Notes: generated from the sequence alone by a model not told the origin. A stretch of 15,702 bases of DNA from Candidatus Sulfobium sp. (GCA_037380845.1 JARRRI010000036.1:791-16492), one strand, 5' to 3'; numbered from the stretch's first letter, positions 120 through 15,427 are shown. A program made the numbers and translations.

Positions 120-1145
120 CTATATCTCCCTCCCCACCGAGGCGGCAACGGCCTGGAGTTCCTTCATCAGCTTTTCGAAATGATCTGGCCTGAGTGACTG
201 CTCTCCGTCGGACATCGCCTCTTCCGGGTTTGTGTGGACTTCTATGATAAGCGCATCGGCTCCAGACGCCACGGCTGCCTTTGCCATCGGAGCTACCAGG
301 TCCCATTTCCCGACCCCGTGGCTGGGGTCGACTACCACCGGCAGATGGGTGAGCTGTTTCAGCACCGGCACCGCGCTCAGATCGAGGGTATTCCTTGTGG
401 CGGTCTCGAAGGTCCTTATGCCCCTTTCGCAGAGCATTACTTCATGATTGCCCCTGGACATTATGTATTCCGCGGACATCAGCCATTCCTTGACCGTCGA
501 GGAGAGCCCTCTTTTCAGGAGGACGGGCTTATTGGCCGACCCAACCTCCAGGAGCAGCCTGAAGTTCTGCATGTTCCTGGCCCCGATCTGGATGATGTCA
601 GCGTACCTTACGATTACGTCGAGGTCCCTGGGGTCCATGATTTCGGTAATTACCGGAAGACCCGTTTTTTCACTCGCCTCGGCCAGGTACCTGAGTCCCT
701 CCTCTCCCAGTCCCTGGAACGAGTAGGGCGATGTCCTGGGCTTGTATGCGCCGCCCCTGAGGAAAGCGGCCCCGGCGGACTTGACCTTTTCGGCGATATT
801 CGTGAGTATAGTCTTGTTCTCTACCGCGCACGGTCCGGCCATGACGGGGATCCTCCTGCCCCCGATCACTGTGCCTTTTATGGTGATCTCGGTATTCTCT
901 TTTCTGAACTCACGGCTTGCGAGTTTGTAGGGCTTTACTATTCTAACGACGCTTTCGACCCCCGCGGCGGCACGGATCGCATCTTCCTCTTCCTCGCTGA
1001 CCTTCGATGTATCGCCGATCACACCGATTATCGTCATCTCCGTGCCCCGGGAAACATTCGCCCTGAGGTCGCGACTCTCCAGTTTCTTGACGATGTGTCT
1101 TATCTCTTCCTCGGTCGCCCCCTGCTTAAGCACGATAATATCCAT
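120..1145 (-). CDS. aroF: DAHP synthase, type I-beta, with N-terminal ACT/ferredoxin-like regulatory domain (copy 1)
   Basis: Motifs [54 protein letters not shown]. The ATG abuts the hisC stop; GGAGG lies upstream. Confidence 0.97.
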
Positions 1146-2228
1146 TCAAACCTCCCTGCTCACCGCAACCCGGCCGAGCGCTTCAACAAACCTTCTGTTT
1201 TCCTCCGGGAGACCTATTGTCACCCTTATCGAATCCGGTCCCATCGGCCTTACGATAACCCCTAGCCCGAGCAGTTGCTCGTAAAGAGCCGGCGCTTCAG
1301 GTACCGGCATATAGATGAAGTTCGCCTCCGTAGGGACGTATTTCATTCCCATCTCATCCAGCCGCCGGTAAAGATATTCCTTGCCTCCTTCATTGACTTC
1401 CCTTGAACGGCGGAGGTGTTCCTCGTCGTCCAGGGCGGCAATCGCCGCTTTCTGCGCTATGGAATTGGTGTTGAAAGGCTCTCTCGACCTGTTCATGTCC
1501 GTCAGTATTTCCTGCTTTGCAACCCCGTAGCCGACCCTCAGCCCGGCAAGACCGTATATCTTGGAAAAAGTCCGCAGAATAAGAACGTTTTTATCGCTGT
1601 GCAGGTATTTCATGCTGTCGGCGTAACCGGGGTCGGTTACGTACTCGTAATACGCCTCGTCCAGGACCACGATTAGATCATCCGGCATCTTCGCCATCAT
1701 CCTGTCGAATTCCTCTTGCCGGTTCAGGGTGCCAGTGGGGTTGTTGGGGTTCGCTATAAAAAGCATTTTTGTCCTGGGCGTCACGGCGGCGGCCATGGCT
1801 TCCAGGTCGTGGACATAATCCTTCAGCGGTACCTGGACGCAGATGCCGCCTACCAACTGCACCCCCATCGAAAAGACTACAAAAGAAGGGACAGCCATGA
1901 CTGCTTCGTCACCGTCGGTCATGAATGTCCGGACCGCTATATCGATGAGCTCGTTCGACCCGTTTCCGAGAATGACCTCATCCTCCCTCACGGACAGCCT
2001 TTCGGAAAGGACCTTCTTCAGATAGTAGCCGCTGCCGTCAGGGTACCTGTTGATGTCGGAGAGTGCCTTCCCGGCAGCTTCAACCGCAGCGGGTGAAGGG
2101 CCTACCGGGTTTTCGTTGGAAGCGAGCTTTACCGAATTGCTGATGCCCAGTTCCCTTTCCAGTTCTTCTATCGGCTTGCCGGGAACGTAGGGACGTACCG
2201 ACAACACGTAGTCCGGCGGACGGATCAT
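1146..2228 (-). CDS. hisC: Histidinol-phosphate/aromatic amino-acid aminotransferase (PLP, class I-beta)
   Basis: YVPGKP, KLASNENP, GNGSNELI, ANPNNPTG, DEAYYEY, RTFSKIYGLAGLRVGY. Start placed at ATG 2228, which overlaps the pheA stop (ATGA). Confidence 0.95.
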   Translation of the reverse strand: MIRPPDYVLSVRPYVPGKPIEELERELGISNSVKLASNENPVGPSPAAVEAAGKALSDINRYPDGSGYYLKKVLSERLSVREDEVILGNGSNELIDIAVRTFMTDGDEAVMAVPSFVVFSMGVQLVGGICVQVPLKDYVHDLEAMAAAVTPRTKMLFIANPNNPTGTLNRQEEFDRMMAKMPDDLIVVLDEAYYEYVTDPGYADSMKYLHSDKNVLILRTFSKIYGLAGLRVGYGVAKQEILTDMNRSREPFNTNSIAQKAAIAALDDEEHLRRSREVNEGGKEYLYRRLDEMGMKYVPTEANFIYMPVPEAPALYEQLLGLGVIVRPMGPDSIRVTIGLPEENRRFVEALGRVAVSREV

Positions 2229-3310
2229 TGGACGGCCCCCTGGGGATAAGAACCCAGCACCTTCAGATAAAGGCAACGGTCTTTGAGAGATTCAGTCGCG
2301 TTTCTGACCTTCCTGTCTTCGATGTGTCCTTCCATGTCGACAAAGAATATGTACTCCCACGCCTTCCTCTTGGAAGGGCGCGATTCGATCTTGGTGAGGT
2401 TTATCTTCGCCCTCTTGAACGGCAGCAGTATGTCATAAAGCGAGCCGGGCCTGTCCTTGATAGAAAACATTATGGATGTTTTGTCATTTCCGGTCTTGGG
2501 GGGGAAGTCTTTCGAGATCACCAGGAACCTGGTGACGTTATGGCGGCTGTCCTCAATATTCCTCTCGATTATCGAAAGGTCGTACATCCTCGCGGCCACC
2601 TCGCTGGCGATCGCGGCTGCGGCCGCGTCCTGGGCGGCGAGCTCGGCTGCCCTGGCGGTGCTGGTGGATTCTTTCGTAACGACCCCCGGCATATTGGACT
2701 CCAGCCAGCCCCTGCACTGTGCAAGGGCCTGGGGATGGGAGTAGATCCTCTTTATCTTCCCCCTGTCCTTCTGCTTCGAAAGCAGATTGTGCGAGACTTC
2801 CAGGACGATCTCGGCGTTTACTTTCAGATCGAAATCCATGAACATGTCCAGCGTATGACTGATGACGCCTTCGTTGGAGTTTTCTATCGGCACGACCCCA
2901 TAGTCGGCTTTTCCGCCTTCCACGTTCTCAAAGACCGCCTTTATGCTGTCCACCGGCAGAAAGGCGGCGGACGACCCGAAGTGCCTTAGAGCGGCCAAAT
3001 GCGTAAAGGTGGCAAGCGGGCCGAGACAGGAGACCTTCAGGGGCTCTTCAAGTGACAGCGATGCAGACAGTATCTCCCTGTATATGGACTTGAGTGCGTC
3101 ATTCGGGAAGGGGCCGCCATTGTTACGGGTCAATCGCTCCAATATCTGGCGTTCGCGTTCCGGTTTGTAAAATTTTACTTTTTCATCGCGGTTTTCCCTG
3201 CGTTTCAGCTTCCCGACTTCCATAACGTTTTCCGCACGTCTGTTCAGGAGGGCGAGTATTTCGTCATCGATCATGTCGATCTTTTTTCTGATTTTATCCA
3301 GCTCGCTCAT
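2225..3310 (-). CDS. pheA: Bifunctional chorismate mutase/prephenate dehydratase (P-protein) with ACT domain
   Basis: N-terminal AroQ (IRKKIDMIDDEILALLNRR...PERE); PDT motifs VPIENSNEG, SHPQALAQC, NVTRF; ACT motif NLTKIESRP. Confidence 0.97.
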   Translation of the reverse strand: MSELDKIRKKIDMIDDEILALLNRRAENVMEVGKLKRRENRDEKVKFYKPERERQILERLTRNNGGPFPNDALKSIYREILSASLSLEEPLKVSCLGPLATFTHLAALRHFGSSAAFLPVDSIKAVFENVEGGKADYGVVPIENSNEGVISHTLDMFMDFDLKVNAEIVLEVSHNLLSKQKDRGKIKRIYSHPQALAQCRGWLESNMPGVVTKESTSTARAAELAAQDAAAAAIASEVAARMYDLSIIERNIEDSRHNVTRFLVISKDFPPKTGNDKTSIMFSIKDRPGSLYDILLPFKRAKINLTKIESRPSKRKAWEYIFFVDMEGHIEDRKVRNATESLKDRCLYLKVLGSYPQGAVQ

Positions 3311-3330
3311 GTCAACTTAGTGTGCCGCAA
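3307..3330 (-). other. Candidate 7-aa upstream ORF (TTG start, MRHTKLT*) whose stop overlaps the pheA ATG
   Basis: GGAGGAG (3346..3340) lies 9 nt before TTG 3330; TGA 3309..3307 overlaps pheA ATG 3310..3308. pheA has no SD at normal spacing. Confidence 0.35.
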
Positions 3331-3371
3331 ATGCAGGGTCTCCTCCCGGGCCGGTTTACGATTAAATTTTA

Positions 3372-3400
3372 ATATTACTTGTTTTTCCTTATTTTTTCAA
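3372..3400 (-). promoter_or_regulatory. Putative sigma70 promoter for pheA-hisC-aroF-tyrA
   Basis: TTGAAA (3400..3395) - 17 nt - TAATAT (3377..3372) in an AT-rich stretch. Confidence 0.55.
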
Positions 3401-3407
3401 GGCATGC

Positions 3408-3504
3408 GTCATCCTGGATTCTGAAACAGAATGGGGTATCTCTGCTGCCGGGCAGCGAAGAGACCGGTTGTCAAGCCGGCTTGCCGGGAATCCTTCAGAA
3501 TGAG
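3408..3504. repeat. Degenerate REP-like palindromic element (GTCAT...ATGA-type ends)
   Basis: Imperfect outer arms GTCATCCTGGA / TTCAGAATGAG enclose the hairpins ATTCTG-AAA-CAGAAT and GCTGC-CGG-GCAGC and the palindrome CAAGCCGGCTTG (3472-3483). Confidence 0.3.
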
Positions 3505-3533
3505 AAGGCTGGAGACCCCCCGAATCAGCATTT

Positions 3534-3656
3534 CAACCACGGCTGGACACGGATAAATACGGATAGAAGGAGTGGTATTTTCAGGTGGCGGGACCCTTGG
3601 CGTGAGTGATTGAAAAAGCTTTGCAGTTACTGAGTATCCGTGTTCATCCGTGGTTG
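3534..3656. repeat. 123-bp element bounded by 22-bp inverted repeats built from 10-nt units (MITE/REP-like)
   Basis: Left arm CAACCACGGCTGGACACGGATA (3534-3555) vs reverse complement of right arm (3635-3656) CAACCACGGATGAACACGGATA: 20/22 match. YACGG recurs every 10 nt (3538, 3548, 3558). Confidence 0.75.
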
Positions 3657-3672
3657 CCGTTCTTCTATTTGT

Positions 3673-4689
3673 TCAGAGCTTCACCCTGTTGAACTTCGAA
3701 AGCTCCTTCAGCCTCTTCATGAGCGCCGCGAAGTCCGCGATATTCAGCGACTGGGGACCGTCGCACAGGGCTTTAAGAGGATCGGGATGTACCTCTATGA
3801 TCAGGCCGTCGGCCCCCGCCGCCATCGCTGCAAAACATAGAGGCTCAACGTAATCCCTCGATCCCGTGGCGTGGGAAGGGTCGATTATTATCGGGAGATG
3901 GGAGCGCTCGTGTATAACGGGTACCGCAGAAATATCCAGGGTGTTCCGGGTAGCGGTCTCGAAGGTCCTGATCCCCCTCTCGCAGAGTATGACATCGCGG
4001 CAGCCTTCGGCGAGCACATATTCCGCCGACATGAGAAATTCCTGGATGGTGGTGGACATGCCCCTCTTCAGGAGAATTGGTTTGCCGTATTTACCCGCTC
4101 TTTTGAGAAGAGAAAAATTCTGGACATTCCGGGCCCCTATCTGAAGTACGTCGGCATATTGACCCACGAGGTCCACATCTTCAGGATTAATGACCTCGGT
4201 GACGAAGGGAAGACCGGACTCCTCCCGGGCCTTTGCCAGCAGCTTCAGGCCCTCATGCTCAAGCCCCTGAAATGAGTAAGGCGAAGTCCTGGGCTTGAAG
4301 GCCCCGCCCCTCAGCATGCGGGCACCTGCCTTCTTCACCCCGACTGCCGTCTCGACGATCTGTTTTTGGTTTTCGACCGAGCATGGCCCCGCAATGACGC
4401 CGAAGTGATCCCCTCCGAACCGGGCGTTGTGGACCCTGATTACCGAAGGCTCCTTCCTCATCTCCCTGCTGGCAAGCTTGTAGGGTTGCAGTATCGGTAC
4501 GAGTTTCTCGACGCAGGGGCTGGCCTCGAGGACTTCAAGCAGGTGCCTGTCCCTGTCGTCGCCGACGGCACCGATGACCGTCCTCTCCACCCCGAAGATG
4601 GCGTGGGGCTTGAAGCCGAGCTTTTCGACCTTTTTCATCAACGCGTCTATCTCCTTTTTCCTGCACCCCTGCTTCATTACAATTATCAT
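3673..4689 (-). CDS. aroF: DAHP synthase, type I-beta, with N-terminal regulatory domain (copy 2)
   Basis: [51 protein letters not shown]. Start ATG 4689 (MIIVMKQG) follows GGGAGGAG. Confidence 0.96.
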   Translation of the reverse strand: MIIVMKQGCRKKEIDALMKKVEKLGFKPHAIFGVERTVIGAVGDDRDRHLLEVLEASPCVEKLVPILQPYKLASREMRKEPSVIRVHNARFGGDHFGVIAGPCSVENQKQIVETAVGVKKAGARMLRGGAFKPRTSPYSFQGLEHEGLKLLAKAREESGLPFVTEVINPEDVDLVGQYADVLQIGARNVQNFSLLKRAGKYGKPILLKRGMSTTIQEFLMSAEYVLAEGCRDVILCERGIRTFETATRNTLDISAVPVIHERSHLPIIIDPSHATGSRDYVEPLCFAAMAAGADGLIIEVHPDPLKALCDGPQSLNIADFAALMKRLKELSKFNRVKL

Positions 4690-4713
4690 GTGCTCCTCCC
4701 TTATCAGTGTATT

Positions 4714-4757
4714 AAAAAATATAAAAGCCACAGGGGCCTGCACCGCCTGTGGCTTTT
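4714..4757 (-). terminator. Intrinsic terminator in the aroF copy 2 leader (attenuator)
   Basis: Minus strand AAAAGCCACAGG-cggtgcaggcc-CCTGTGGCTTTT then ATATTTTTT, ending about 25 nt before the start codon. Confidence 0.8.
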
Positions 4758-5089: not shown

Positions 5090-5719
5090 ATGCGACTGAC
5101 GAAGGCAGCTTCGACTTACCTGGAGAAAGAGTCGGTCCCTTTCATATGGGCGGCAGCTGTTTTACTCGACCTGCTTATCGGCCTGGTCGATTACAGGACC
5201 GGCTACGAAATCGGTCTCTCGGTCTTCTATCTCGCGCCCATTGCGCTGTGCGCCTGGTATATCGGCCGGAAGGCGGGTTTGCTGATGTCGGTTCTCAGTG
5301 CCGTAACGATGGCTGGGTCGATGTATCTGACCGGATACGTTGCCGGGGTAGGTCATCGGGGATATCTCGCGGATTTATGGACACTGTTCCTGCGCATCTC
5401 ATTCTATCTCATCGTTGTCTTCCTTTTGTCGGGTCTCAAGGAGAGCTTCGAGGAGCAGAGAAGACTCGTGTCCGAACTCAAGAAGGCCCTCAATGAAATA
5501 AAGACACTGAGCGGTTTCCTGCCTATCTGTGCTTCCTGCAAGAAGATACGGGACGACAGAGGGTACTGGTACGAGGTGGAGAAATATGTCAGCGAGCACT
5601 CGGACGCCCAGTTCAGCCACGGGCTGTGTCCCGATTGTGCCGAGAAACTCTATCCCGAGTATTTCAAAAAGGAAGAAGCAGCAAGGGACGGTCAGCAACA
5701 AAGACACAAGAGGACGTGA
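5090..5719 (+). CDS. Membrane protein (about 4 TM), coiled coil and C-terminal CxxC...HxxCxxC putative metal-binding domain
   Basis: Hydrophobic segments in roughly aa 17-116, then EEQRRLVSELKKALNEIKTL and LPICASCKKIRDDRGYW...FSHGLCPDC, a module I recognise from the C-termini of receiver/PAS/membrane signalling proteins. Confidence 0.85.
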   Translation: MRLTKAASTYLEKESVPFIWAAAVLLDLLIGLVDYRTGYEIGLSVFYLAPIALCAWYIGRKAGLLMSVLSAVTMAGSMYLTGYVAGVGHRGYLADLWTLFLRISFYLIVVFLLSGLKESFEEQRRLVSELKKALNEIKTLSGFLPICASCKKIRDDRGYWYEVEKYVSEHSDAQFSHGLCPDCAEKLYPEYFKKEEAARDGQQQRHKRT

Positions 5720-5747: not shown

Positions 5748-7274
5748 CTATTTTATCGATAAGACTATTCCGTCGCAGACCGATTCGGACGGGGTCAGGC
5801 GACCGTCGTTTTCTTTGTCTATGCAGACGTTGACTCTGCCCCGCAGGACCGGAAAGGCGGATGTGGCACCCAGAATACGCCAGATTCCGGCGTTTATTCC
5901 GGCAAGACTGTAGCCGGAGACAACCGGCCTCATGCTTCCAGGGCCGTCGCCCGGCTCCCAGGCGCCGTCATAATAAAACATTGTCTCCCCGCCGTCCCCG
6001 GCAAACCCGACCCATGCATAGATTTCCACCCCGGTGCCTTCCCAGTCCCCCGGAACGATGTCGATGGGGACGTCAAAGGGAGCAGGCCTCTGGACCGTAA
6101 GGATATGGTCGCCCCGGTTGAGAATAATTTCGGGTACTCCGTTCCCGAGAGAAGGATGAGTATCAGCCCAGAACATCCGGTAGAGCGCGGCGGTATGTTC
6201 CACGCCCGATGGAAGCAGCGTGTCGCCAACCGGTGAAAGGTCTTCGTCGCCGATATCGGTCTTGTCGAAATCTGAAAGAAGATGCAGTTCCAGCCCGTCG
6301 TCAAAGACCAGTCCGATTCCGTAAAAGGAGGGCATCTCATCCGCCAGGGTTTTACGGGCCGAGTCGAGGAGGATGAACTTATTCCTTGCCGGCGACAGCC
6401 CGTAACCCCATGACAACTGTCTGACCGTGAAATCCTCACCGACCGCGTAGACTCCTTCCAGCCCGCTGTGCGTTGTCCGGACGCTCGTTCCCCGTCTTGT
6501 CCCTCTGTCGGTCTTTCCGTCGGCGTCGTCACTGTCGTAGTTATCGGACATTTCCGCCATGGAGTAAAACAGCCTGAACAGGGGAGGTTCTTCGGGATAA
6601 CCTCCATCCGTGAGACTTCCGTAAGGGACCGGAAGAAGGTTGGCGCGGGGGAAGGCGGCTTCAAAATTTGCCGCCCGTTCCCCGGCCGGAATGCCTGAAA
6701 TGTATTGCCTGCCGGTATATTCCTCGAAGGAGTCGTCGCCCGTGGAGTCCATATCGGAGATATGAGGGTCTAGGTGTACATGAGCCGGTGTTGCCATGTC
6801 GGCGAGCAGATGCGCCACCCTGCCCAGGAGGTAATAGGCCCCGGAGGGATCTTCGTCATATATTTCGACGGCGGACCGATAAAGCGACTGTGCGCGCTGA
6901 TAGGCGTTTTGGGACTCGAGATTGACAGGGATATTTTCGACTTTCGTGAGGAGTCCGCCGTCCGGTCCGGCGTCGGGCTGCCAAAAGTGGGTGCCCCAGT
7001 TCAGGAGTCCCCACCATACGTCGGGTCCATCCGAAAGCCTCGGGTCACGATCGGCGTCTTCGTCATAGGCACCCTTGCATAAATTGTCCCTGGCTGAATA
7101 AAGGCAGTCCGGATAATCCCCTGAATATACATGCAGCTCGGACGGCACGGTCTGGACAAGAGACGATTCGTAGGCTATCAGGGAATGCAGTTCGGAATAC
7201 AGGGCATGGGCTTTCTGCGCGCGGAAGAGGACCGGGAGGGATATGAGCAAAAGAATCAGAGCGGCTCTTTTCAT
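5748..7274 (-). CDS. Secreted protein with Zn-dependent phospholipase C/S1-P1 nuclease-like domain and C-terminal beta-rich domain
   Basis: Signal peptide MKRAALILLLISLPVLFRAQKAHA. Ordered ligand-like motifs SELH, AYDED, THFW, YLLGRVAHLLADMATPAH, DDSFEEY. Alternative start TTG 7304. Confidence 0.7.
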   Translation of the reverse strand: MKRAALILLLISLPVLFRAQKAHALYSELHSLIAYESSLVQTVPSELHVYSGDYPDCLYSARDNLCKGAYDEDADRDPRLSDGPDVWWGLLNWGTHFWQPDAGPDGGLLTKVENIPVNLESQNAYQRAQSLYRSAVEIYDEDPSGAYYLLGRVAHLLADMATPAHVHLDPHISDMDSTGDDSFEEYTGRQYISGIPAGERAANFEAAFPRANLLPVPYGSLTDGGYPEEPPLFRLFYSMAEMSDNYDSDDADGKTDRGTRRGTSVRTTHSGLEGVYAVGEDFTVRQLSWGYGLSPARNKFILLDSARKTLADEMPSFYGIGLVFDDGLELHLLSDFDKTDIGDEDLSPVGDTLLPSGVEHTAALYRMFWADTHPSLGNGVPEIILNRGDHILTVQRPAPFDVPIDIVPGDWEGTGVEIYAWVGFAGDGGETMFYYDGAWEPGDGPGSMRPVVSGYSLAGINAGIWRILGATSAFPVLRGRVNVCIDKENDGRLTPSESVCDGIVLSIK

Positions 7275-7316
7275 GTAGCCATATATTAACCTGAACTCCC
7301 GCAATGTTCAATGTTG

Positions 7317-7352
7317 AAAAGGAGGCAGCTCCACCCGGGAGCCTGCCTCCTT
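7317..7352 (-). terminator. Intrinsic terminator after the 166-aa gene
   Basis: Minus strand AAGGAGGCAG-G-CTCC-cgggt-GGAG-CTGCCTCCTT followed by TT. Confidence 0.7.
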
Positions 7353-7385
7353 GTTGTTTCGATCAGCTCATAGCGACAATTAAAT

Positions 7386-7886
7386 CTAAAACGCCGTCAA
7401 TAGCTGGAAATATGCTACAGGGACTTCTAAAGAACCTACGTAAAGATAACCATCTGTGGTATCCAACAAAGCGTCTATTCTTACTATTGGCCCGTAGGAG
7501 TTGTTTGCTTTGGTTATGTCCAGGAAGACATAGAAGTCCACGACCCCCTGATAGATGCCCTTTATATAGTCTTTCAGGTAATCCGCATCCGCAAATGCGC
7601 TTCCTATCTGGGCCAGCTGGCCCGGGCCGTAGACTGTTATGCCCGGTAAGGAACCGCCGAACATTCCGAGGACAAGCGGCAAAGACTGTGCATAGGTGTC
7701 TACTTCCTGAAGCGTGAAGTCGGAGGAGTCGAATTTACCGACCACGACGGCGGAAAGATTGTCGCTGCCGCCCGGCATATATAATCCCAAAACCGGGTAT
7801 CCTGAAGAATAAGCGGGTGCGGTTCCGACAAAGAGAACAGCGGCGATAACACCGACGCAGGCAAGCAAGACTTTTCCTTTTTTCAC
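7386..7886 (-). CDS. Hypothetical exported protein, 166 aa
   Basis: GTG start after AAGGGGG; basic N-terminus, hydrophobic core and APA-YS cleavage-like site; followed by a terminator. No family recognised. Confidence 0.8.
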   Translation of the reverse strand: MKKGKVLLACVGVIAAVLFVGTAPAYSSGYPVLGLYMPGGSDNLSAVVVGKFDSSDFTLQEVDTYAQSLPLVLGMFGGSLPGITVYGPGQLAQIGSAFADADYLKDYIKGIYQGVVDFYVFLDITKANNSYGPIVRIDALLDTTDGYLYVGSLEVPVAYFQLLTAF

Positions 7887-8166: not shown

Positions 8167-8568
8167 CTAGTCCATGAGAATGCGATAGCCGGACAACTCT
8201 TCGACCGCTTCGATCTTGTCCCGTAATCCGGTGCGGTCATATCGGCCGTATGCCTGCGAACTGCCAGAGAGATGCAGAAGCCTGTCGGCATCGTTTATCG
8301 CCCATATGCCGCCGCCGCGGACTTCCCATCCATTTTCGTGTATTTCGTAAAAATCGCCCTTCCCGTTATAATCTCCCCTGATTTTCAGTCGGGTGAAAAA
8401 ACGCTCGACAATGTTGGCATGATAAACCGACAGCCCTTTCGGAGACAGAACGAGATATTCCGTGCCGTCGTTTCTGATCAGGACGAACTTGCCGAGACGC
8501 TTGTCCGGTACTGACGCTTTTCCGATGGCCCGGTAATAGATATCTGAATAGTCTAAAAGGATGAACAC
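8167..8568 (-). CDS. 133-aa protein resembling the PHPT1/Janus-Ocnus phosphohistidine phosphatase family
   Basis: Ordered motifs KFVLIR, YHANI, RGGG, LHLSGSSQAYG, DKIEA parallel human PHPT1 KYVLIR, YHADI, LGGG, IHVYGYSMAYG, EKIKA (recalled sequence). Start codon uncertain (no clear SD). Confidence 0.7.
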   Translation of the reverse strand: MFILLDYSDIYYRAIGKASVPDKRLGKFVLIRNDGTEYLVLSPKGLSVYHANIVERFFTRLKIRGDYNGKGDFYEIHENGWEVRGGGIWAINDADRLLHLSGSSQAYGRYDRTGLRDKIEAVEELSGYRILMD

Positions 8569-8593
8569 GAAGAAGGTCCCGGCACGATTATGA

Positions 8594-9565
8594 CTACCTG
8601 CTTAATACCCGGGCGGCTTCCTTTGCGAAATAGGTGAGTATAAGGTCGGCGCCGGCGCGTTTTATCGAGGTCAGGATCTCGATCATCACGCGTTCTTCAT
8701 CAATCCATCCCATCTTTGCCGCCGCCTTGATGACGGAATATTCGCCGCTCACATTATAAGCGGCAACAGGAAGGTCAACACTTTCTTTTACGTCGGAAAT
8801 CACATCAAGGTAAGTCATCGCCGGTTTGACCATCACGATATCCGCGCCCTCTTCGATATCGAGGGCGACTTCCTTCAGCGCCTCCCTTCGGTTGGCGGGG
8901 TCCATCTGGTAGGAACGCCGGTCCCCGAACTGAGGGGTCGATTCGGCGGCGTCGCGGAAAGGACCGTAGAAGGCCGAGGCATACTTGGCAGCGTAGCTCA
9001 TGATGGGCAATTCTTCATACCCCTCCGCATCGAGGGCCGCCCTAATCGCCTGCACCCTGCCGTCCATCATGTCGGAAGGGGCCACCATGTCGGCCCCGGC
9101 CCTGGCATGCGAGACCGCTTCTCTGGCGAGGAGTTCCAGCGTGGGATCGTTCTTTACATCCCCTTCCTCTATTATCCCGCAGTGGCCGTGGCTGGTGTAT
9201 TCGCACATGCAGACGTCGGTGATAACGTACAACTCCGGCACCTTGTCCTTGATTGTCCGGATGGCCTTCTGGACCACGCCGTGGGGGTCGTAGGCCCCGG
9301 AGCCCGTTTCGTCCTTCTCTTCGGGAATACCGAAGAGTATTACCGCGGGGATGCCGAGGGAGTAAACCTCTTTGGCGTGTTTGACGATCCTGTCTGCGGA
9401 CTCCTGGTAACACCCGGGCATGGAGCTTATCTCCTTCCGGACGTTCCTGCCGTAAGTGACGAAAAGGGGATAGATGAAATCGTTAGGAGACAGTGGGGTT
9501 TCCCTCACCATTCTCCTGACGGTCTCGTTTTTTCTCAGTCTCCTCGGTCTTACGACGGGAAACAT
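8594..9565 (-). CDS. hemB: Porphobilinogen synthase (ALA dehydratase), Zn-binding type
   Basis: [20 protein letters not shown] (CxCx7C), [29 protein letters not shown]. Confidence 0.98.
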
Positions 9566-9886
9566 TTATCCGCAGGAACTGCAGCCGGAGCCGCACGAAG
9601 GGGGCTCGTTGCTGTTTATGACAAACCCCTCTCCCTGGTCCGTTTTGACGTAGTCGATCTCTTTACCGCTCAGGCTCTGCGAGGCCTCTTTGTCCATGAA
9701 AACCTTCAGCCCGTTCTTCTCGACTGTTTCATCGTCTTCAGAAGCCGCCTGATCTATGTCAAGGCCGTAGCTCGGTCCGCAGCATCCGGCCCCGTGTATG
9801 AAAACCCTGAGCCCCCAGCCTTCCTTTCCTTCGGTCTTCAGAAGCTGCAAGGCCTTCTCCGCAGCCGCATCGGAAATTTTCAACAC
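9566..9886 (-). CDS. HesB/IscA-family (A-type carrier-like) Fe-S cluster accessory protein
   Basis: ISDAAAEK, LRVFIHGAGCCGPSYGL, DYV...GF, C-terminal CGSGCSSCG. GTG start with GGAGG SD; stop abuts the hemB ATG. Confidence 0.9.
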   Translation of the reverse strand: MLKISDAAAEKALQLLKTEGKEGWGLRVFIHGAGCCGPSYGLDIDQAASEDDETVEKNGLKVFMDKEASQSLSGKEIDYVKTDQGEGFVINSNEPPSCGSGCSSCG

Positions 9887-10040: not shown

Positions 10041-10079
10041 AACGCCTAATGTAACCACGTGGTTAGTAGGCGTTTTTTT
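10041..10079 (+). terminator. Terminator-like hairpin in the 5' leader of the glutamate synthase-like operon
   Basis: AACGCCTA-atg-TAACCACGTGGTTA-g-TAGGCGTT merging into a T7 run, 30 nt before the ATG. Confidence 0.65.
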
Positions 10080-10109
10080 AGCATAAAATATTGTCGAGGC
10101 GAGGCTGAA

Positions 10110-11219
10110 ATGTGCCGTTTGGCTGCGATAACATCTTCTGAATATGTTTCCCCGATGGAGCCCATTCTTGCCCTTGAGACCATGAAGGAAGGTCACGACG
10201 GCTCCGGGCTGGGCGTCATGATGAAGGACCTGGGCGGGGAATTTGAAGAATTGAAGGAATACCCTGTCCTGTCGGCCATCTGTTCCGATGCCGGCATGGA
10301 GGCGGTCGATGAATACATGGAGAAAAAAGGGTTCACGGTCAAGCATTCGTGGACGCCTTCGATAAAGGAAGTGCCGGGAGTCCGCAGAAGGGACCACTAT
10401 TTTGCCCGGGCATACAGTTATCCCGACTCTTACGCCGGAAAACCGGACCGTGAAAAAGAAGACCTTCTTTTGAGAACGCGGCTTGAACTGAGGAGGATGG
10501 GACAGGCCGACGAATCGATTATCGTGTTCTCGTTCTATCCTGACATACTGTCGATCAAGGAAGTCGGAGACCCCCTTCAGCTCAGCGAATTCTTCAGTCT
10601 TGAAAAGTCTTCGCTGAAGGCGAGGATAGTAATGGCCCAGGGAAGGCAAAATACCAATTACGCGATTAACCTGTATGCCTGCCACCCGTTCTTCATCCAG
10701 GGGTTTTCGACCATGACCAACGGCGAGAACACAGCCTTTGTCCCGATAAGGGAGTATCTCATGAGCAGGGGATTCCCCGGTTATGTAGGGTATAACAGCG
10801 ACAGCGAGGTCTTTACCCACATCCTCCATTACCTGGTCAGACAGCTGGGCCACCCTCTCTCCTATTACAAACACGTCATCACCCCCCTGAAGTCCTCCGA
10901 GATAGAGAAGAGGGAGGACAGACAGGTTCTGGACCTGCTGAAAAAATCCCTGCGCATGCTCTGTATCGACGGGCCGAACTGTGTGATAGGATTTACTCCC
11001 GACGGAGCCTGCTTTATGACCCAGGACTCCAAGAAGCTGAGGCCGGGCATGGTGGGAGGCGTGAAGGGCAGGTATGCGCTCATGTCGGAGGAATGCGGCG
11101 TGGACAGCGCTGTGCCCGACAGGGACAGATCGAAAGACATATTTCCGATGAAGTACGACATGGTGGTCGTCTCACCGGGGGCTGAGGAGGTAAGGGTTTG
11201 GAACCAGCTTCGCGATTAG
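10110..11219 (+). CDS. Class II (Ntn) glutamine amidotransferase, stand-alone glutamate synthase domain 1 (GltB1-like)
   Basis: Starts M-C-R-L (N-terminal nucleophile Cys2); GHDGSG, QGRQNTN, CHPF, TNGEN, SDSE, DGP, KKLRP; GAGG SD. Confidence 0.9.
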   Translation: MCRLAAITSSEYVSPMEPILALETMKEGHDGSGLGVMMKDLGGEFEELKEYPVLSAICSDAGMEAVDEYMEKKGFTVKHSWTPSIKEVPGVRRRDHYFARAYSYPDSYAGKPDREKEDLLLRTRLELRRMGQADESIIVFSFYPDILSIKEVGDPLQLSEFFSLEKSSLKARIVMAQGRQNTNYAINLYACHPFFIQGFSTMTNGENTAFVPIREYLMSRGFPGYVGYNSDSEVFTHILHYLVRQLGHPLSYYKHVITPLKSSEIEKREDRQVLDLLKKSLRMLCIDGPNCVIGFTPDGACFMTQDSKKLRPGMVGGVKGRYALMSEECGVDSAVPDRDRSKDIFPMKYDMVVVSPGAEEVRVWNQLRD

Positions 11220-12856
11220 ACCACAATCATCAACTCTCAGTGAGAGAGTTCCCTTACATAATCAGGTGGAGGGACGACAGGTGCAAGAGGTGCGGCAAAT
11301 GCACGGCCGTATGTCCTGTCAAGGCTATCGAGCCGTCCATAAAGATCATGAGAACAGTGACTTCGGAGGGCCCTGTGCCGGAACCGACGGCGACCAGGAA
11401 GATCACCTATGTCGTGGAACAGGTGACCGACATCAACCGCTACTGCACCGGCTGCGGGACGTGCACGCTTGTATGTCCGAACGAGGCGATAGAGCCGGAG
11501 TTGAATCCCCAGAACAAGTTCCTTCACTTTAAGAACAAGGGCGGGGACGCCTATAAGAGGGGCGGCAGGCGCAACGACCCGTCGATATCGACCCTCGACA
11601 GGCTCAAGTTTACAAGGATATCAATGCTGACCGACCCGGCCCTGGACGCGGGCCGTCATGAATTCAGGATACGTACACTTCTGGGGAGGAACCTGCCTCC
11701 GGAGCAACTTCCCCTGAAGGATATGGGCGGAAAGCTGGTTGTGGACAAAGACGGCATATTCGTCCCGCCCGTGCGCGAGATCTACCCGATCATGATAGGC
11801 AGCATGTCAGTGGGCGCACTTTCGCCGCCGATGTGGGAGGGGCTGGCGATGGGCATTACCTACCTCAATGAGGTGGAGGGAATGCCCGTAGTGATGTGCT
11901 CCGGTGAAGGCGGAATGCCCCCGAGGCTTCTGAAATCCAAGTTCCTCAAATATTTCATCCTGCAGATCGCATCGGGTTATTTCGGATGGGACGAAATCAT
12001 CCATGCCCTTCCGGACATGGTAGAGGACCCCTGCGCGATAGAGATAAAATACGGCCAGGGCGCAAAGCCCGGAGACGGCGGACTCCTGATGGCCTATAAA
12101 GTACTCAAGCTGATCGCCGAGATCAGGGGTGTCCCGATGATGGTCGACCTCGCTTCGCCTCCGACCCATCAGACCAAATACTCGATCGAAGAGGCGGTGG
12201 CCAAGATGATCCAGTCGATGTCTATGGCCTGGGGTTTCCGTGTGCCGGTATATCCGAAGATTTCGGGCACGAAGACAGCGCAGGCTGTTCTTAACAACCT
12301 CGCACGGAACCCTTATGCAGCGGCCCTGAGCATCGACGGCGAGGACGGCGGCACCGGCGCAGCCTACAACGTTTCTATGGACAAGATGGGCCATCCCATC
12401 GCGTCCAACATCAGGGATTGCTATCTCGACCTTGTGAAGCAGGGCAAACAGAACGAACTGCCGCTGATAGCAGCCGGCGGGGTCGGCAAAAAGGGCAACC
12501 TTGCTGCCAATGCTGCAGCACTGATAATGCTGGGTGCATCGGCCGTTTCCATAGGCAAATATATCATGCAGACCGCGGCGCAGTGCTTCGGAGACGAATA
12601 CAACAGGTGCAATCTTTGCAATACGGGGAGGTGCCCGAGGGGCATCACCACGCAGGACCCGAAACTTTACCGGAGACTGGATCCGGATAAGGTCGCCGAG
12701 CGCGTGGTGGAAGTCTTCAAGACGGCGGATACGGAACTGAGGAAGATATTTGCCCCCATGGGCAGGAGTACCGAACTGCCGATCGGGATGTCGGACGGCC
12801 TGAGCATAGGAGACCGCGAGATGGCGGAAAGGTTGCATATAGATTATGCGTGCTGA
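11198..12856 (+). CDS. Glutamate synthase FMN-binding subunit (GltB2-like) with N-terminal 2x[4Fe-4S] ferredoxin domain
   Basis: CKRCGKCTAVCP and CTGCGTCTLVCP; MSVGALS, SGEGG, QIASGYFG, EIKYGQGAKPGDGG, DGEDGGTGAA, CNLCNTGRCPRGITTQDP. TTG start 7 nt after GAGGAGG. Confidence 0.92.
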   Translation: MEPASRLDHNHQLSVREFPYIIRWRDDRCKRCGKCTAVCPVKAIEPSIKIMRTVTSEGPVPEPTATRKITYVVEQVTDINRYCTGCGTCTLVCPNEAIEPELNPQNKFLHFKNKGGDAYKRGGRRNDPSISTLDRLKFTRISMLTDPALDAGRHEFRIRTLLGRNLPPEQLPLKDMGGKLVVDKDGIFVPPVREIYPIMIGSMSVGALSPPMWEGLAMGITYLNEVEGMPVVMCSGEGGMPPRLLKSKFLKYFILQIASGYFGWDEIIHALPDMVEDPCAIEIKYGQGAKPGDGGLLMAYKVLKLIAEIRGVPMMVDLASPPTHQTKYSIEEAVAKMIQSMSMAWGFRVPVYPKISGTKTAQAVLNNLARNPYAAALSIDGEDGGTGAAYNVSMDKMGHPIASNIRDCYLDLVKQGKQNELPLIAAGGVGKKGNLAANAAALIMLGASAVSIGKYIMQTAAQCFGDEYNRCNLCNTGRCPRGITTQDPKLYRRLDPDKVAERVVEVFKTADTELRKIFAPMGRSTELPIGMSDGLSIGDREMAERLHIDYAC

Positions 12857-12906
12857 AGAAAGACAGGAAGTTCGGAAGCGGGGAAGATACGAAGGAGAAG
12901 GCGGAC

Positions 12907-13107
12907 ATGCTGAAAAAGTCCATAACTTCGGCAAATATTGAAAGCCGGCTCATGACAGAGACGCTGCTGTCTCCGTCATTCCCGCAGTTCTTGGACGGGC
13001 ATCCACTGTTTCTGAAACATGGATGCCCGATTGAAGTCCTCGGGCATGACAGTATGAGGCTGGAGGTTGCAGGTGTTTGCCTGCGATATAGTTATGCGAA
13101 TGAATAA
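12907..13107 (+). CDS. Possible small hypothetical ORF (66 aa; 85 aa from GTG 12850) spanning a palindromic repeat; may be non-coding
   Basis: AAGGAG 9 nt before ATG 12907; stop overlaps ATG 13100 (ATGAATAA). No recognisable motif. Confidence 0.25.
   Translation: MLKKSITSANIESRLMTETLLSPSFPQFLDGHPLFLKHGCPIEVLGHDSMRLEVAGVCLRYSYANE
12975..13050. repeat. 76-bp REP/RPE-like nested palindrome
   Basis: GTCATTCCCG-N11-CGGGCATCCA-N14-TGGATGCCCG-N11-CGGGCATGAC; outer arms pair 9/10, inner arms 10/10. Confidence 0.85.
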
Positions 13108-15427
13108 AGTGACCATAAATGGAGAGTTCGACGGCAAGAGGATCCCTTCCCGGATCCTTGAAGAACATATCCAGCAGGCCGTGCAGGAAGGCGCCCGGGA
13201 GATGCTGGTACGTGCCGAAGGGCAGCACGGTATAGGCGGTCGCATCTGGCCCAGGGGCGAGAGGGTGAGGATAACCGTTGAGGGTCCCGTCGGCCAGCGT
13301 ATCGGCAGCATGGGGATGGAAGGGACGGAGATCCTTGTCAAGGGAAGCACCTCCGATGACGCGGGCTGGCTCAACTGCGGCGCAAAGATAACGGTGCTGG
13401 GAGACGTGACAAACGGCGCTCACAACGCCGCGGCCCAGGGCATCCTGTATGTCCAGGGGAGCGGCGGAGCGAGGTGCGACACCATGACCAAGAGGAACCC
13501 CCGGTTCGAACCCCCTCAGTCCTGGTATTTCAGGAGTGTGGGCGACTCCTTCGCAGAGTTCAAGGCGGGGGGTATTGCTGTAGTCTGCGGTGTTGATTCG
13601 CGTGACGTCGACAGCGTGCTCGGCTACAGGCCCTGCGTGGGGATGGTCGGAGGGACGATATACTTCCGCGGCAATATCAGCGGATACAGCGAGCGCGACG
13701 TAAAACTGCTGGAACTCACTCCACAGGACTGGGAATGGCTGAAGGGCAACATGAAGGATTATCTGAAGGCCATTGACAGGGAGCCTCATTACCGGGAGCT
13801 TACCCGCTCGTCAGATGAATGGAAGAAACTGATCGCCTACACGCCTGCCGAAAAAAAGGCATTTCCGAAGAACCGGTTGTCGACCACTGATTTCAGAAAG
13901 GATGTCTGGGAGAAGGGAGTCGGGGAGGGGGGAATCTTCGGCCCTTATATCACACACGAACAGACGCTTCTCCCGTATATCACGACCGGTGTGGAGAGGC
14001 GGAACAGGCCTGTCTGGAACAATGAAAAGTATCTGCCTCCCTGTGCCTACAACTGCCCTACCCATATACCTTCCCACAAGAGGGCGACTCTCATAAGACA
14101 GGGGAAGATGAAAGAGGCAATGGATCTGGTCCTGAGATACAGCCCGCTGCCGGCAACCGTCTGCGGTCAGATATGCCCCAATCTCTGCATGCAGAGCTGC
14201 ACCAGGGGACAACTCGACCAGCCCCTCAATATTAGGGAACTTGGAAATCTGGCGCTCAAACTGCCCGCCCCGAAACCGGCTAAAAAGACGGGCCACAGGA
14301 TAGCGGTGATCGGCGGCGGACCGGCTGGTCTTTCAGCTGCCTGGCAGCTCGGGCTGAAGGGACACAGCGTTGATTTATATGAAGCGGAGCGCAAGCTGGG
14401 CGGGAAGATAGAACTCTGTATCCCGAGAGAGCGTCTCCCGCACAAGGTCCTCCTGAAGGAACTGTCCCGTTTCAAAGAGATAGGCGTGACGGCTCACATC
14501 GGAAGGAAGATCAACCAGAAGGCTTTCGAGAGAATCTATAAGGCGCATGATGTCGTGGTAGTGGCCTGCGGCGCCCATAAGCCCAGGAAGATAGAATTCC
14601 CCGGTTCAGATGACGTCATGTCGGCGATAGATTTCCTGAAGGGCATAAATTTCGGGAAGGACGTCGTGCTCAAGGGCAAGAGGGTCGTTATCATAGGCGC
14701 CGGAAACGTCGGGATGGACGTTGCTTCCCAGGCGTTCAACTGCGGTGCGGCCTCTGTGACCGCGGTCGACATCCAGAAGCCCGCGGCCTTTGGAAAGGAG
14801 ATGGAGCTTGCGAAGGAGAAGGGGACCGGGATAATATGGCCGAAGGTGGCGAAGAAATATGACAAGAAGGCGAAGAAGATCTTCTTTAAGGATGGTACGT
14901 TCCTCGATGCCGATATGGTGATCATGTCGGTCGGTGAAGTGCCGGTCCTGGATTTCCTCCCTCCGGCCATCCATGCAGAAAGAGGATGGATCACCGTTGA
15001 CGAACTCGGCAGGACGTCCGATCCGAAGGTCTTCGCCATCGGGGACGCGACCAGGCCCGGGCTGGTAACTCATGCTATCGGACAGGGAAGGACCGCGGCC
15101 GACGTGATCCACTCGGAATTGATGCATTACGATTACATGCCGGAGGTGAAGCAGGTCATCCCTTACGAGAGCATCAAGACCGAATACTATGAGGTCTGCC
15201 GCCGCGAGGAATTCGAGGCGAAGCAGGAGGCGGGCCTTTGCATGTCCTGCGCCACCTGCCGCGACTGCCACATGTGCGAGGCCACATGCTACTGGGACGC
15301 TATAAGCAGGGTCGAGCACAACGACGGCTCCTACGAGTACGTGGTGGACGACGAAAAGTGCATAGGCTGCGGGTTCTGCGCCGGTATATGTCCCTGCGGC
15401 GTCTGGGAGATGGTCGAAAACATCTGA
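13100..15427 (+). CDS. Fusion of glutamate synthase GXGXG domain (GltB3), GltD-like FAD/NAD(P) oxidoreductase and C-terminal ferredoxin
   Basis: GXGXG repeats (GQHGIGG, GQRIGSMG, GDSFAEF, CVGMVGG); PCAYNCP, CGQICPNLCMQSC; IGGGPAGLSAA; GAGNVGMD; TSDPKVFAIGD; CMSCATCRDCHMCEATC; CIGCGFCAGICP. Start ambiguous (GTG 13073 after GGAGG, ATG 13094 or ATG 13100). Confidence 0.9.
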   Translation: MNKVTINGEFDGKRIPSRILEEHIQQAVQEGAREMLVRAEGQHGIGGRIWPRGERVRITVEGPVGQRIGSMGMEGTEILVKGSTSDDAGWLNCGAKITVLGDVTNGAHNAAAQGILYVQGSGGARCDTMTKRNPRFEPPQSWYFRSVGDSFAEFKAGGIAVVCGVDSRDVDSVLGYRPCVGMVGGTIYFRGNISGYSERDVKLLELTPQDWEWLKGNMKDYLKAIDREPHYRELTRSSDEWKKLIAYTPAEKKAFPKNRLSTTDFRKDVWEKGVGEGGIFGPYITHEQTLLPYITTGVERRNRPVWNNEKYLPPCAYNCPTHIPSHKRATLIRQGKMKEAMDLVLRYSPLPATVCGQICPNLCMQSCTRGQLDQPLNIRELGNLALKLPAPKPAKKTGHRIAVIGGGPAGLSAAWQLGLKGHSVDLYEAERKLGGKIELCIPRERLPHKVLLKELSRFKEIGVTAHIGRKINQKAFERIYKAHDVVVVACGAHKPRKIEFPGSDDVMSAIDFLKGINFGKDVVLKGKRVVIIGAGNVGMDVASQAFNCGAASVTAVDIQKPAAFGKEMELAKEKGTGIIWPKVAKKYDKKAKKIFFKDGTFLDADMVIMSVGEVPVLDFLPPAIHAERGWITVDELGRTSDPKVFAIGDATRPGLVTHAIGQGRTAADVIHSELMHYDYMPEVKQVIPYESIKTEYYEVCRREEFEAKQEAGLCMSCATCRDCHMCEATCYWDAISRVEHNDGSYEYVVDDEKCIGCGFCAGICPCGVWEMVENI

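Follow-up and report, generated by a model that had tools for sequence, protein, structure and literature searches.

The protein encoded by an open reading frame (ORF) in a stretch of DNA from Candidatus Sulfobium sp. belongs, as a bacterial member, to the Janus/Ocnus fold of the 14-kDa phosphohistidine (pHis) phosphatase PHPT1, and both its homology to PHPT1 and its place in the fold are established. The whole stretch, at its full length of 15,702 nucleotides, is referred to here as the window. A sequence-only reading of the window had proposed that the ORF is a PHPT1 homolog, and this is borne out by a match to the Pfam Ocnus profile and by an AlphaFold2/Foldseek fold match that is unique to PHPT1. 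The ORF protein matches Pfam Ocnus (PF05005), its only Pfam match, with an E-value of 3.3e-4 and 21.1 bits, which is just short of the 23-bit gathering cut-off, and the same model is matched at E≤0.1 by 23 of 23 close homologs (best 8.3e-6). An NCBIfam scan of the ORF protein gave no match, and NCBIfam has no model for the family. A search of PDB sequences with the single protein did not retrieve PHPT1 at E≤10, and a profile of the 23 homologs ranked human PHPT1 first (E 0.017). Human PHPT1 was the sole significant PDB sequence for profiles of 52 diverse members (E 1.1e-6) and of 19 members with a GGGK motif (E 3.9e-7), the next unrelated sequence for these two profiles standing at E 0.04-0.07. 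The AlphaFold2 model of the ORF protein, which was built on a 23-sequence alignment and has a pLDDT of 95.6 and a pTM of 0.89, displays the α/β fold of PHPT1. When this model was compared with PDB by Foldseek, the top five matches were all human PHPT1 (E 4.8e-7 to 1.2e-4, TM 0.56-0.74), and the next match after the PHPT1 set came at E 0.078. A profile of the N-terminal half, which holds the region of K27 and H50, did not bring up PHPT1 among PDB sequences at E≤10. The best matches to that half were the KA1 domains of BRSK1/2 (E 0.05-0.12), which were taken as chance.

The ORF is a genuine gene that evolves under purifying selection. It is more than a chance reading frame because 23 full-length homologs (40-82% BLASTP identity) run without frame breaks, because dN/dS is 0.14-0.19 against three relatives at about 80% nucleotide identity, and because the motifs picked out in the sequence-only reading are the most conserved columns of the family alignment. 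All of these motifs are present in the translation with the numbering claimed for them, namely KFVLIR at 27-32, YHANI at 49-53, GGG at 85-87, HLSGSSQAYG at 99-108, and DKIEA at 117-121, and the codons of K27, H50, the GGG, and S104 were confirmed in the raw bases. The extent of the ORF and its 25-nt distance from hemB on the same strand were likewise as claimed; the strand itself, which had been left unstated, is the minus strand (Table 1). Scans of the window for terminators and promoters found nothing above shuffled expectation, an Rfam scan of the window found no family, and the 280-nt region 3' of the ORF folds no better than its shuffles (z 0.34). The stretch or part of it is contained in 14 DNA runs of marsh/salt-marsh metagenomes, 9 of which hold at least half of its words, and there is no RNA dataset among those listed as containing it.

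Table 1. Features of the window and of the PHPT1-like ORF, with positions counted from the first letter of the window
Feature	Position	Strand	Remarks
PHPT1/Janus-Ocnus-like ORF	8167..8568	(-)	133 aa, GTG start, TAG stop; from translation, Pfam, model, dN/dS
Codon of K27, proposed equivalent of PHPT1 Lys21	8488..8490	(-)	K in 154/159
Y49-H50-A51-N52-I53, proposed catalytic His motif	8410..8424 (H50 codon 8419-8421)	(-)	H 158/159, A51 140/159
Insertion relative to PHPT1, small β-hairpin from helix 1 to the GGG strand	8341..8385 (about residues 62-76)	(-)	Borders inferred
G85-G86-G87 loop, PHPT1 G75-G77	8308..8316	(-)	HMMER alignments; 157, 159, and 146 of 159
S104-Q-A106-Y107-G108, PHPT1 S94-M-A96-Y-G98	8245..8259 (S104 codon 8257-8259)	(-)	HMMER alignments; phosphate-binding Ser and backbone
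Spacer from hemB stop to GTG start	8569..8593	(-)	25 nt; no terminator-like site on the minus strand
hemB (porphobilinogen synthase)	8594..9565	(-)	Pfam ALAD, E 2.4e-159; upstream of the ORF
IscA/ErpA-like Fe-S carrier	9566..9886	(-)	Fe-S_biosyn E 7.9e-12; TIGR00049 79.2 bits, above cut-off; abuts hemB, upstream of it
Glutamate synthase set, 386-aa gene	10059-11219	(+)	No Pfam match
Glutamate synthase set, Fer4 and Glu_synthase gene	11198-12856	(+)	
Glutamate synthase set, GXGXG, Pyr_redox_2, and Fer4 gene	13067-15427	(+)	
Two DAHP synthase genes	120-1145, 3673-4743	(-)	
Aminotransferase, aromatic block	1146-2276	(-)	
Chorismate mutase/prephenate dehydratase	2225-3310	(-)	

The catalytic site of human PHPT1 is described as being made up of Lys21, His53, Ala54, Ser94, and Ala96, with phosphate bound by the backbone NH groups of residues 53, 54, and 96 and by the hydroxyl of Ser94, and with Tyr52 preceding His53 (PMC4817053). 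Conservation in the bacterial family was assessed on 159 aligned sequences of 115-190 aa, the remainder of 173 proteins after 14 shorter or longer ones were dropped. The family carries a PHPT1-like site, as K27, H50, A51, S104, and A106 match the residues named for the human enzyme. Of the three residues whose equivalents were predicted to be kept, H53 is represented by H50 in 158 of 159 sequences and S94 by S104 in 158, and K27, the probable counterpart of K21 by the fold match, is present in 154. The two computable refutations named in the sequence-only reading, the absence of a profile or structural match to PHPT1 and a lack of H50 conservation, thus both failed to materialize. Conservation is also high at F28 (151), A106 (131), Y107 (154), and G108 (159). 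The HMMER alignments show only residues 53-119 of human PHPT1, leaving the N-terminal half outside them, and in these alignments the human protein reads H53-A-D-I against the Y49-H50-A51-N52-I53 of the bacterial one. The equivalence of H50 with H53, with an insertion of about 13 residues behind it, is well supported; it rests on the Y-H-A-[ND]-I motif, the arithmetic of the Pfam alignment, and the fold match, because the N-terminal-half profile missed PHPT1. In the AlphaFold2 model, H50 starts helix 1 (residues 50-60).

Two further residues, Arg78 and His102, are both reported to contribute to the activity of human PHPT1 (PMC4817053, PMC11277029). Their equivalents are not kept, just as the sequence-only reading had it: the ORF protein has I88 and R112, and both columns are variable. 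The Arg78 column (position 88, n=159) contains H 38, K 24, Y 17, R 15, I 14, and M 14, so that it is H/K/R in 77 of 159 sequences and hydrophobic or aromatic in most others, and it is I, M, or L in the ORF protein and its 13 closest relatives (72-81% identical). The His102 column, which aligns to R112, contains R 40, L 35, and P 18 (n=159).

The spacing from the His to the GGG is 35 residues in the ORF protein versus 22 in human PHPT1, in agreement with the predicted insertion of about 13 residues before the GGG. This spacing is 35 in 117 of 159 family members and 33-37 in 157 of them, and the Pfam alignment, which pairs residues 38-120 of the protein with HMM positions 32-101, gives a net 13 extra residues. 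Within the insertion, the AlphaFold2 model places strands at 65-67 and 74-76. The human substrate site is described as lying between the α1-β4 loop and the β5-α2 loop (PMC4817053), and the bacterial insertion falls in the α1-β4 loop, one of the two loops that flank it. Because the hairpin is inserted and the Arg78 and His102 equivalents are missing, the family is a structural variant of PHPT1 and not a plain ortholog. The family-wide insertion and the missing equivalents together imply a substrate range different from that of the animal enzyme.

HMMER, run exhaustively against 1.84 billion cluster representatives, recovered 255 clusters (50% identity) at E≤1e-3 and 103 at E≤1e-10. The members are single-domain proteins with no fused partner within the length range searched. 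The sequence-only reading had called the PHPT1 family mainly eukaryotic, which agrees with the literature consulted, where PHPT1 is called eukaryotic in a SixA paper (PMC6282199) and where SixA papers, that one included, present SixA as the characterized bacterial pHis phosphatase. Pfam, however, already marks hundreds of bacterial proteins with PF05005, and its taxonomic profile of the family includes bacteria (PMC10989767). Among the best 120 of 691 relatives, all appear to be bacterial, with source names that are either a bacterial MAG or "hypothetical protein", and PF05005 is precomputed on 116 of these 120, one of which JGI names "Janus/Ocnus family". Among the 23 closer relatives of the ORF protein, the precomputed PF05005 is present on only 3, and the NCBI/JGI names looked up for ten members were "hypothetical protein" or none. 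In the ESM Atlas, bacterial clusters of 343 and 62 members are named "Janus/Ocnus family domain-containing protein", and a 114-member "hypothetical protein" cluster has PF05005 on 52% of its members. The bacterial family is thus flagged by automatic annotation already, yet no study of a bacterial PHPT1/Ocnus homolog was found in the literature searched.

The distribution of the family is patchy. A survey of loci, which used pattern-based retrieval with one genome per species and is biased to the subfamily of YHANIVER type, yielded 55 loci that are mostly from Nitrospirota or Thermodesulfovibrionales MAGs, with a few from Pirellulaceae/Planctomycetota, Zixibacteria, and "Delta-" or "Betaproteobacteria" bins. 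In this survey the nearest relatives came from two Thermodesulfovibrionales MAGs, at 79% and 76% identity, and from a MAG of Candidatus Sulfobium, at 78%. When whole genomes were searched with the family profile (E≤1e-5), 52 of the 301 from the window's phylum proved to be carriers (35 among the 229 of high quality), and these carriers are concentrated in a few families of that phylum: 30 of 64 genomes in one (f21) and 7 of 8 in another (f7), and three further families have no carrier (0 of 50, 0 of 28, and 0 of 24). The phylum of a Zixibacteria carrier has the family in 53 of 121 genomes, and that of a Pirellulaceae carrier (Planctomycetota) in 4 of 251. The Pfam Ocnus model matched 43 of the 301 genomes from the window's phylum, 40 of them above the cut-off, and it matched none of 14 well-known control genomes.

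Phage (Uroviricota) clusters of about 99 aa in the ESM Atlas weakly resemble residues 25-133 of the model, as does a 108-aa Tenacibaculum phage protein (BFVD A0A1B4XX83), the best match at E 0.022 in a viral fold search of BFVD that gave nothing at E≤0.001. The phage proteins superpose on these model residues with TM 0.46-0.67 and may be truncated relatives of the PHPT1 fold. The Ca. Sulfobium MAG carries, in addition to its full copy, a trace of a second family member in the form of a C-terminal fragment of 55 residues with a TGA in frame (G305:C117:8979-9143).

The genome of the window itself encodes both candidate kinds of pHis phosphatase. A second PHPT1-like gene (G000:C3:71922-72323; L057 1501-1905; L068 5923-6327) encodes a 134-aa protein with the motifs YHSDLLERF and GGGK, the latter placing a basic residue where PHPT1 has Arg78, and it scores 23.5 bits with Ocnus, just above the cut-off. 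Upstream of this paralog are two DegP-like proteases and an Slp lipoprotein, and downstream are an uncharacterized 323-aa gene followed by CopC and CopD. A full-length SixA is encoded at G000:C1:42872-43333 (TIGR00249, 124.5 bits versus a cut-off of 74.5). Across the window's phylum, SixA scores above its cut-off in 20 of 52 carriers of the family and in 52 of 249 non-carriers, a difference with a Fisher p of 0.011, a value that the relatedness of the genomes makes invalid. The idea that the family replaces SixA was rejected, since the two are not mutually exclusive: SixA occurs in carriers, including the window's genome.

The immediate (+/-1) neighbors of the gene were scanned with Pfam at 56 loci, the 55 of the survey and that of the paralog, and they are heterogeneous. 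A convergent YceG/MltG gene adjoins it in 18, which looks like clade synteny. Other neighbors are a GGDEF protein upstream in 4 of the 56 and a GGDEF-EAL protein downstream in 1, a 2-oxoacid dehydrogenase E2 gene in 4, rubrerythrin in 2, and Usp with peroxiredoxin in 2. A hybrid histidine kinase with an Hpt domain adjoins the family gene at one locus (L013), and no PTS or NDK gene was found by Pfam among the immediate neighbors at any of the 56. At two loci (L038 4663-5791 and L044 1506-2634), the PHPT1-like gene shares its strand with a PemK/MazF-like toxin gene upstream of it and a MazE antitoxin gene downstream, which is an odd order for a toxin-antitoxin pair.

A different arrangement is found among 20 Zixibacteria-phylum loci, where a same-strand cluster contains an HD/HDIG phosphohydrolase, an MFS transporter, a PHP/CehA-McbA-like gene, the PHPT1-like gene, nuoA, nuoB, and nuoC. 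At 9 of the 20, the PHP-like gene immediately precedes the PHPT1-like gene; MFS is present at 11, and nuoA is downstream at 11. The assignment as a PHP-domain/CehA-McbA-like metallohydrolase has scores of 64 and 47 bits, below the cut-off of 80. No PTS, NDK, or histidine kinase gene was found among the chosen neighbors that were Pfam-scanned at 11 of the 20 loci. The cluster loci include L070, L072 (960-6056), L077, L085, and L088, the MFS protein is ATG22-like, and the cluster sets three phosphohydrolase-type genes and a transporter side by side.

The ORF protein most likely works like PHPT1, although we put this forward only tentatively: as a small metal-independent P-N hydrolase, it would act on protein phosphohistidine and perhaps on phospholysine. 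In human PHPT1, His53 is described as a general base that acts on water, with no phospho-enzyme intermediate (PMC11277029). By the same scheme, H50 at the N-terminus of helix 1 would activate a water molecule as general base, and the phosphoryl group would be held by the backbone NH groups of H50/A51 and A106, the S104 hydroxyl, K27, and the GGG loop. Hydrolysis would then proceed without a phospho-enzyme intermediate, as in PHPT1.

Alternatively, the same fold and chemistry may serve for salvage or detoxification of a small phosphorylated metabolite such as a phosphoramidate, a phospho-amino acid, an acyl phosphate, or a nucleotide derivative. We regard this as rather unlikely, but it has points in its favor: the hairpin remodels the substrate loop, the anchoring Arg78 equivalent is missing from the ORF protein, and the gene adjoins, in the window's phylum, an assortment of unrelated genes for housekeeping or stress, none of which encodes a signaling partner. 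The Zixibacteria-phylum cluster, with its HD/HDIG, MFS, and PHP-like genes, also fits a metabolite substrate, but its synteny belongs to one lineage and does not surround the window's gene, and as it abuts the nuoABC operon it may be plain conserved gene order. Moreover, the reviews consulted give proteins as the substrates of animal PHPT1, to which all assays of the fold have been confined.

It is improbable, by comparison, that the protein has kept its pocket only as a non-catalytic module that binds a phospho-ligand or a protein and works as a regulator or adaptor. Such a role would be in keeping with the lack of equivalents of R78 and H102, which are tied to the activity of human PHPT1, and with a statement in PMC4817053 that the pHis phosphatase role of related family proteins is still unclear. 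However, near-invariant His, Ser, and Lys residues across 159 diverse sequences are what would be expected of a working catalytic site, and an adaptor sits poorly with single-domain proteins that have no fused partner in the length range searched.

The sequence-only reading had also suggested co-expression with Fe-S/tetrapyrrole genes, and here its claim stands in part. Adjacency holds at the closest loci, as hemB and iscA are upstream in 5 of the 55 (L001-L003, L005, and L006; 52-78% tblastn identity), which are the closest relatives in the list, and in the window's lineage co-transcription of the gene with iscA-like and hemB is probable. At the other 50 related loci the arrangement is absent, so the neighborhood is lineage-specific and the family as a whole does not share the hemB/iscA linkage. 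It is therefore highly improbable that the protein is dedicated to making tetrapyrroles or Fe-S clusters, despite the short same-strand gap to hemB with no terminator-like site in between and the arrangement kept at the five closest loci, given those 50 loci, the 323-aa gene, CopC, and CopD beside the paralog, and the quite different neighbors in the Zixibacteria phylum.

The rest of the window offers some further observations. At 5090-5719 (+), the window encodes a membrane protein of 209 aa that matches DUF4118 weakly and has a C-terminal tail rich in Cys (CxxC ... CxxC). In L021, L028, and L033, tblastn located the N-terminal domain of this protein shortly upstream of the PHPT1-like gene. 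At these three loci the neighbor on the upstream side is a 289-aa GGDEF protein, with DUF4118 too in L028. The region at 5748-7886 (-) encodes two proteins that are secreted by the look of their hydrophobic N-termini, one of 518 aa with only a weak match to Zn-dependent phospholipase C (E 0.0031) and one of 166 aa that falls in no family. In Ca. Sulfobium L002 the two are again present on the downstream side of the PHPT1-like gene, and in L001 and L003 rubrerythrin takes that place instead. An archaeal-type split glutamate synthase set occupies 10059-15427 (+), and an aromatic amino-acid biosynthesis block occupies 120-4743 (-).

Phosphohistidine is central in the signaling and metabolism of bacteria, where it appears in two-component systems, the PTS, NDK, and succinyl-CoA synthetase. 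A conserved bacterial branch of PHPT1 with an intact His/Ser/Lys set, spread over 255 clusters, is thus a candidate for a second class of pHis phosphatase, and its small, simple proteins are suited to the study of how the PHPT1 fold selects its substrates. It is possible, if doubtful, that bacteria have a second class of P-N phosphatase that is homologous to PHPT1, unrelated to SixA, and equipped with its own substrate-loop hairpin. Such a class would be common in the Zixibacteria phylum and in some Nitrospirota lineages, and the animal enzyme would be an offshoot of an old prokaryotic family. If this is true, co-existence with SixA would point to a distinct set of pHis proteins for the family. 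The weight of the proposal is limited by the many members that are already auto-tagged Janus/Ocnus, by the lack of a conserved partner gene that points to a substrate, and by an activity that is predicted.

Among the known systems, SixA shares the proposed job, which is to take the phosphate off phosphohistidine, but it has an unrelated fold and mechanism. A His of SixA itself carries the phosphate in a phospho-enzyme intermediate, and no His_Phos match was found in the ORF protein by the Pfam scan. LHPP, a phospholysine/phosphohistidine/pyrophosphate phosphatase which is described as acting on P-N phospho-amino acids, free ones included (PMC11277029, PMC12687438), has a HAD fold with an Asp nucleophile and has no sequence or fold relation to the ORF. 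The PF05005 Janus/Ocnus family (Drosophila Janus-A/B and Ocnus) is closer, as its HMM matches the ORF protein and the 23 close homologs, although its characterized members are from animals. The ORF protein falls 1.9 bits below the PF05005 cut-off, whereas the paralog and most GGGK-type relatives are above it. The closest system is human PHPT1 (PDB 2HW4, 2NMM, and 2AI6), from which the ORF protein differs in being bacterial, in its β-hairpin insertion of about 13 aa, in having I88 for Arg78 and R112 for His102, and in a Lys-to-His spacing of 23 residues versus 32 by PHPT1 residue numbers.
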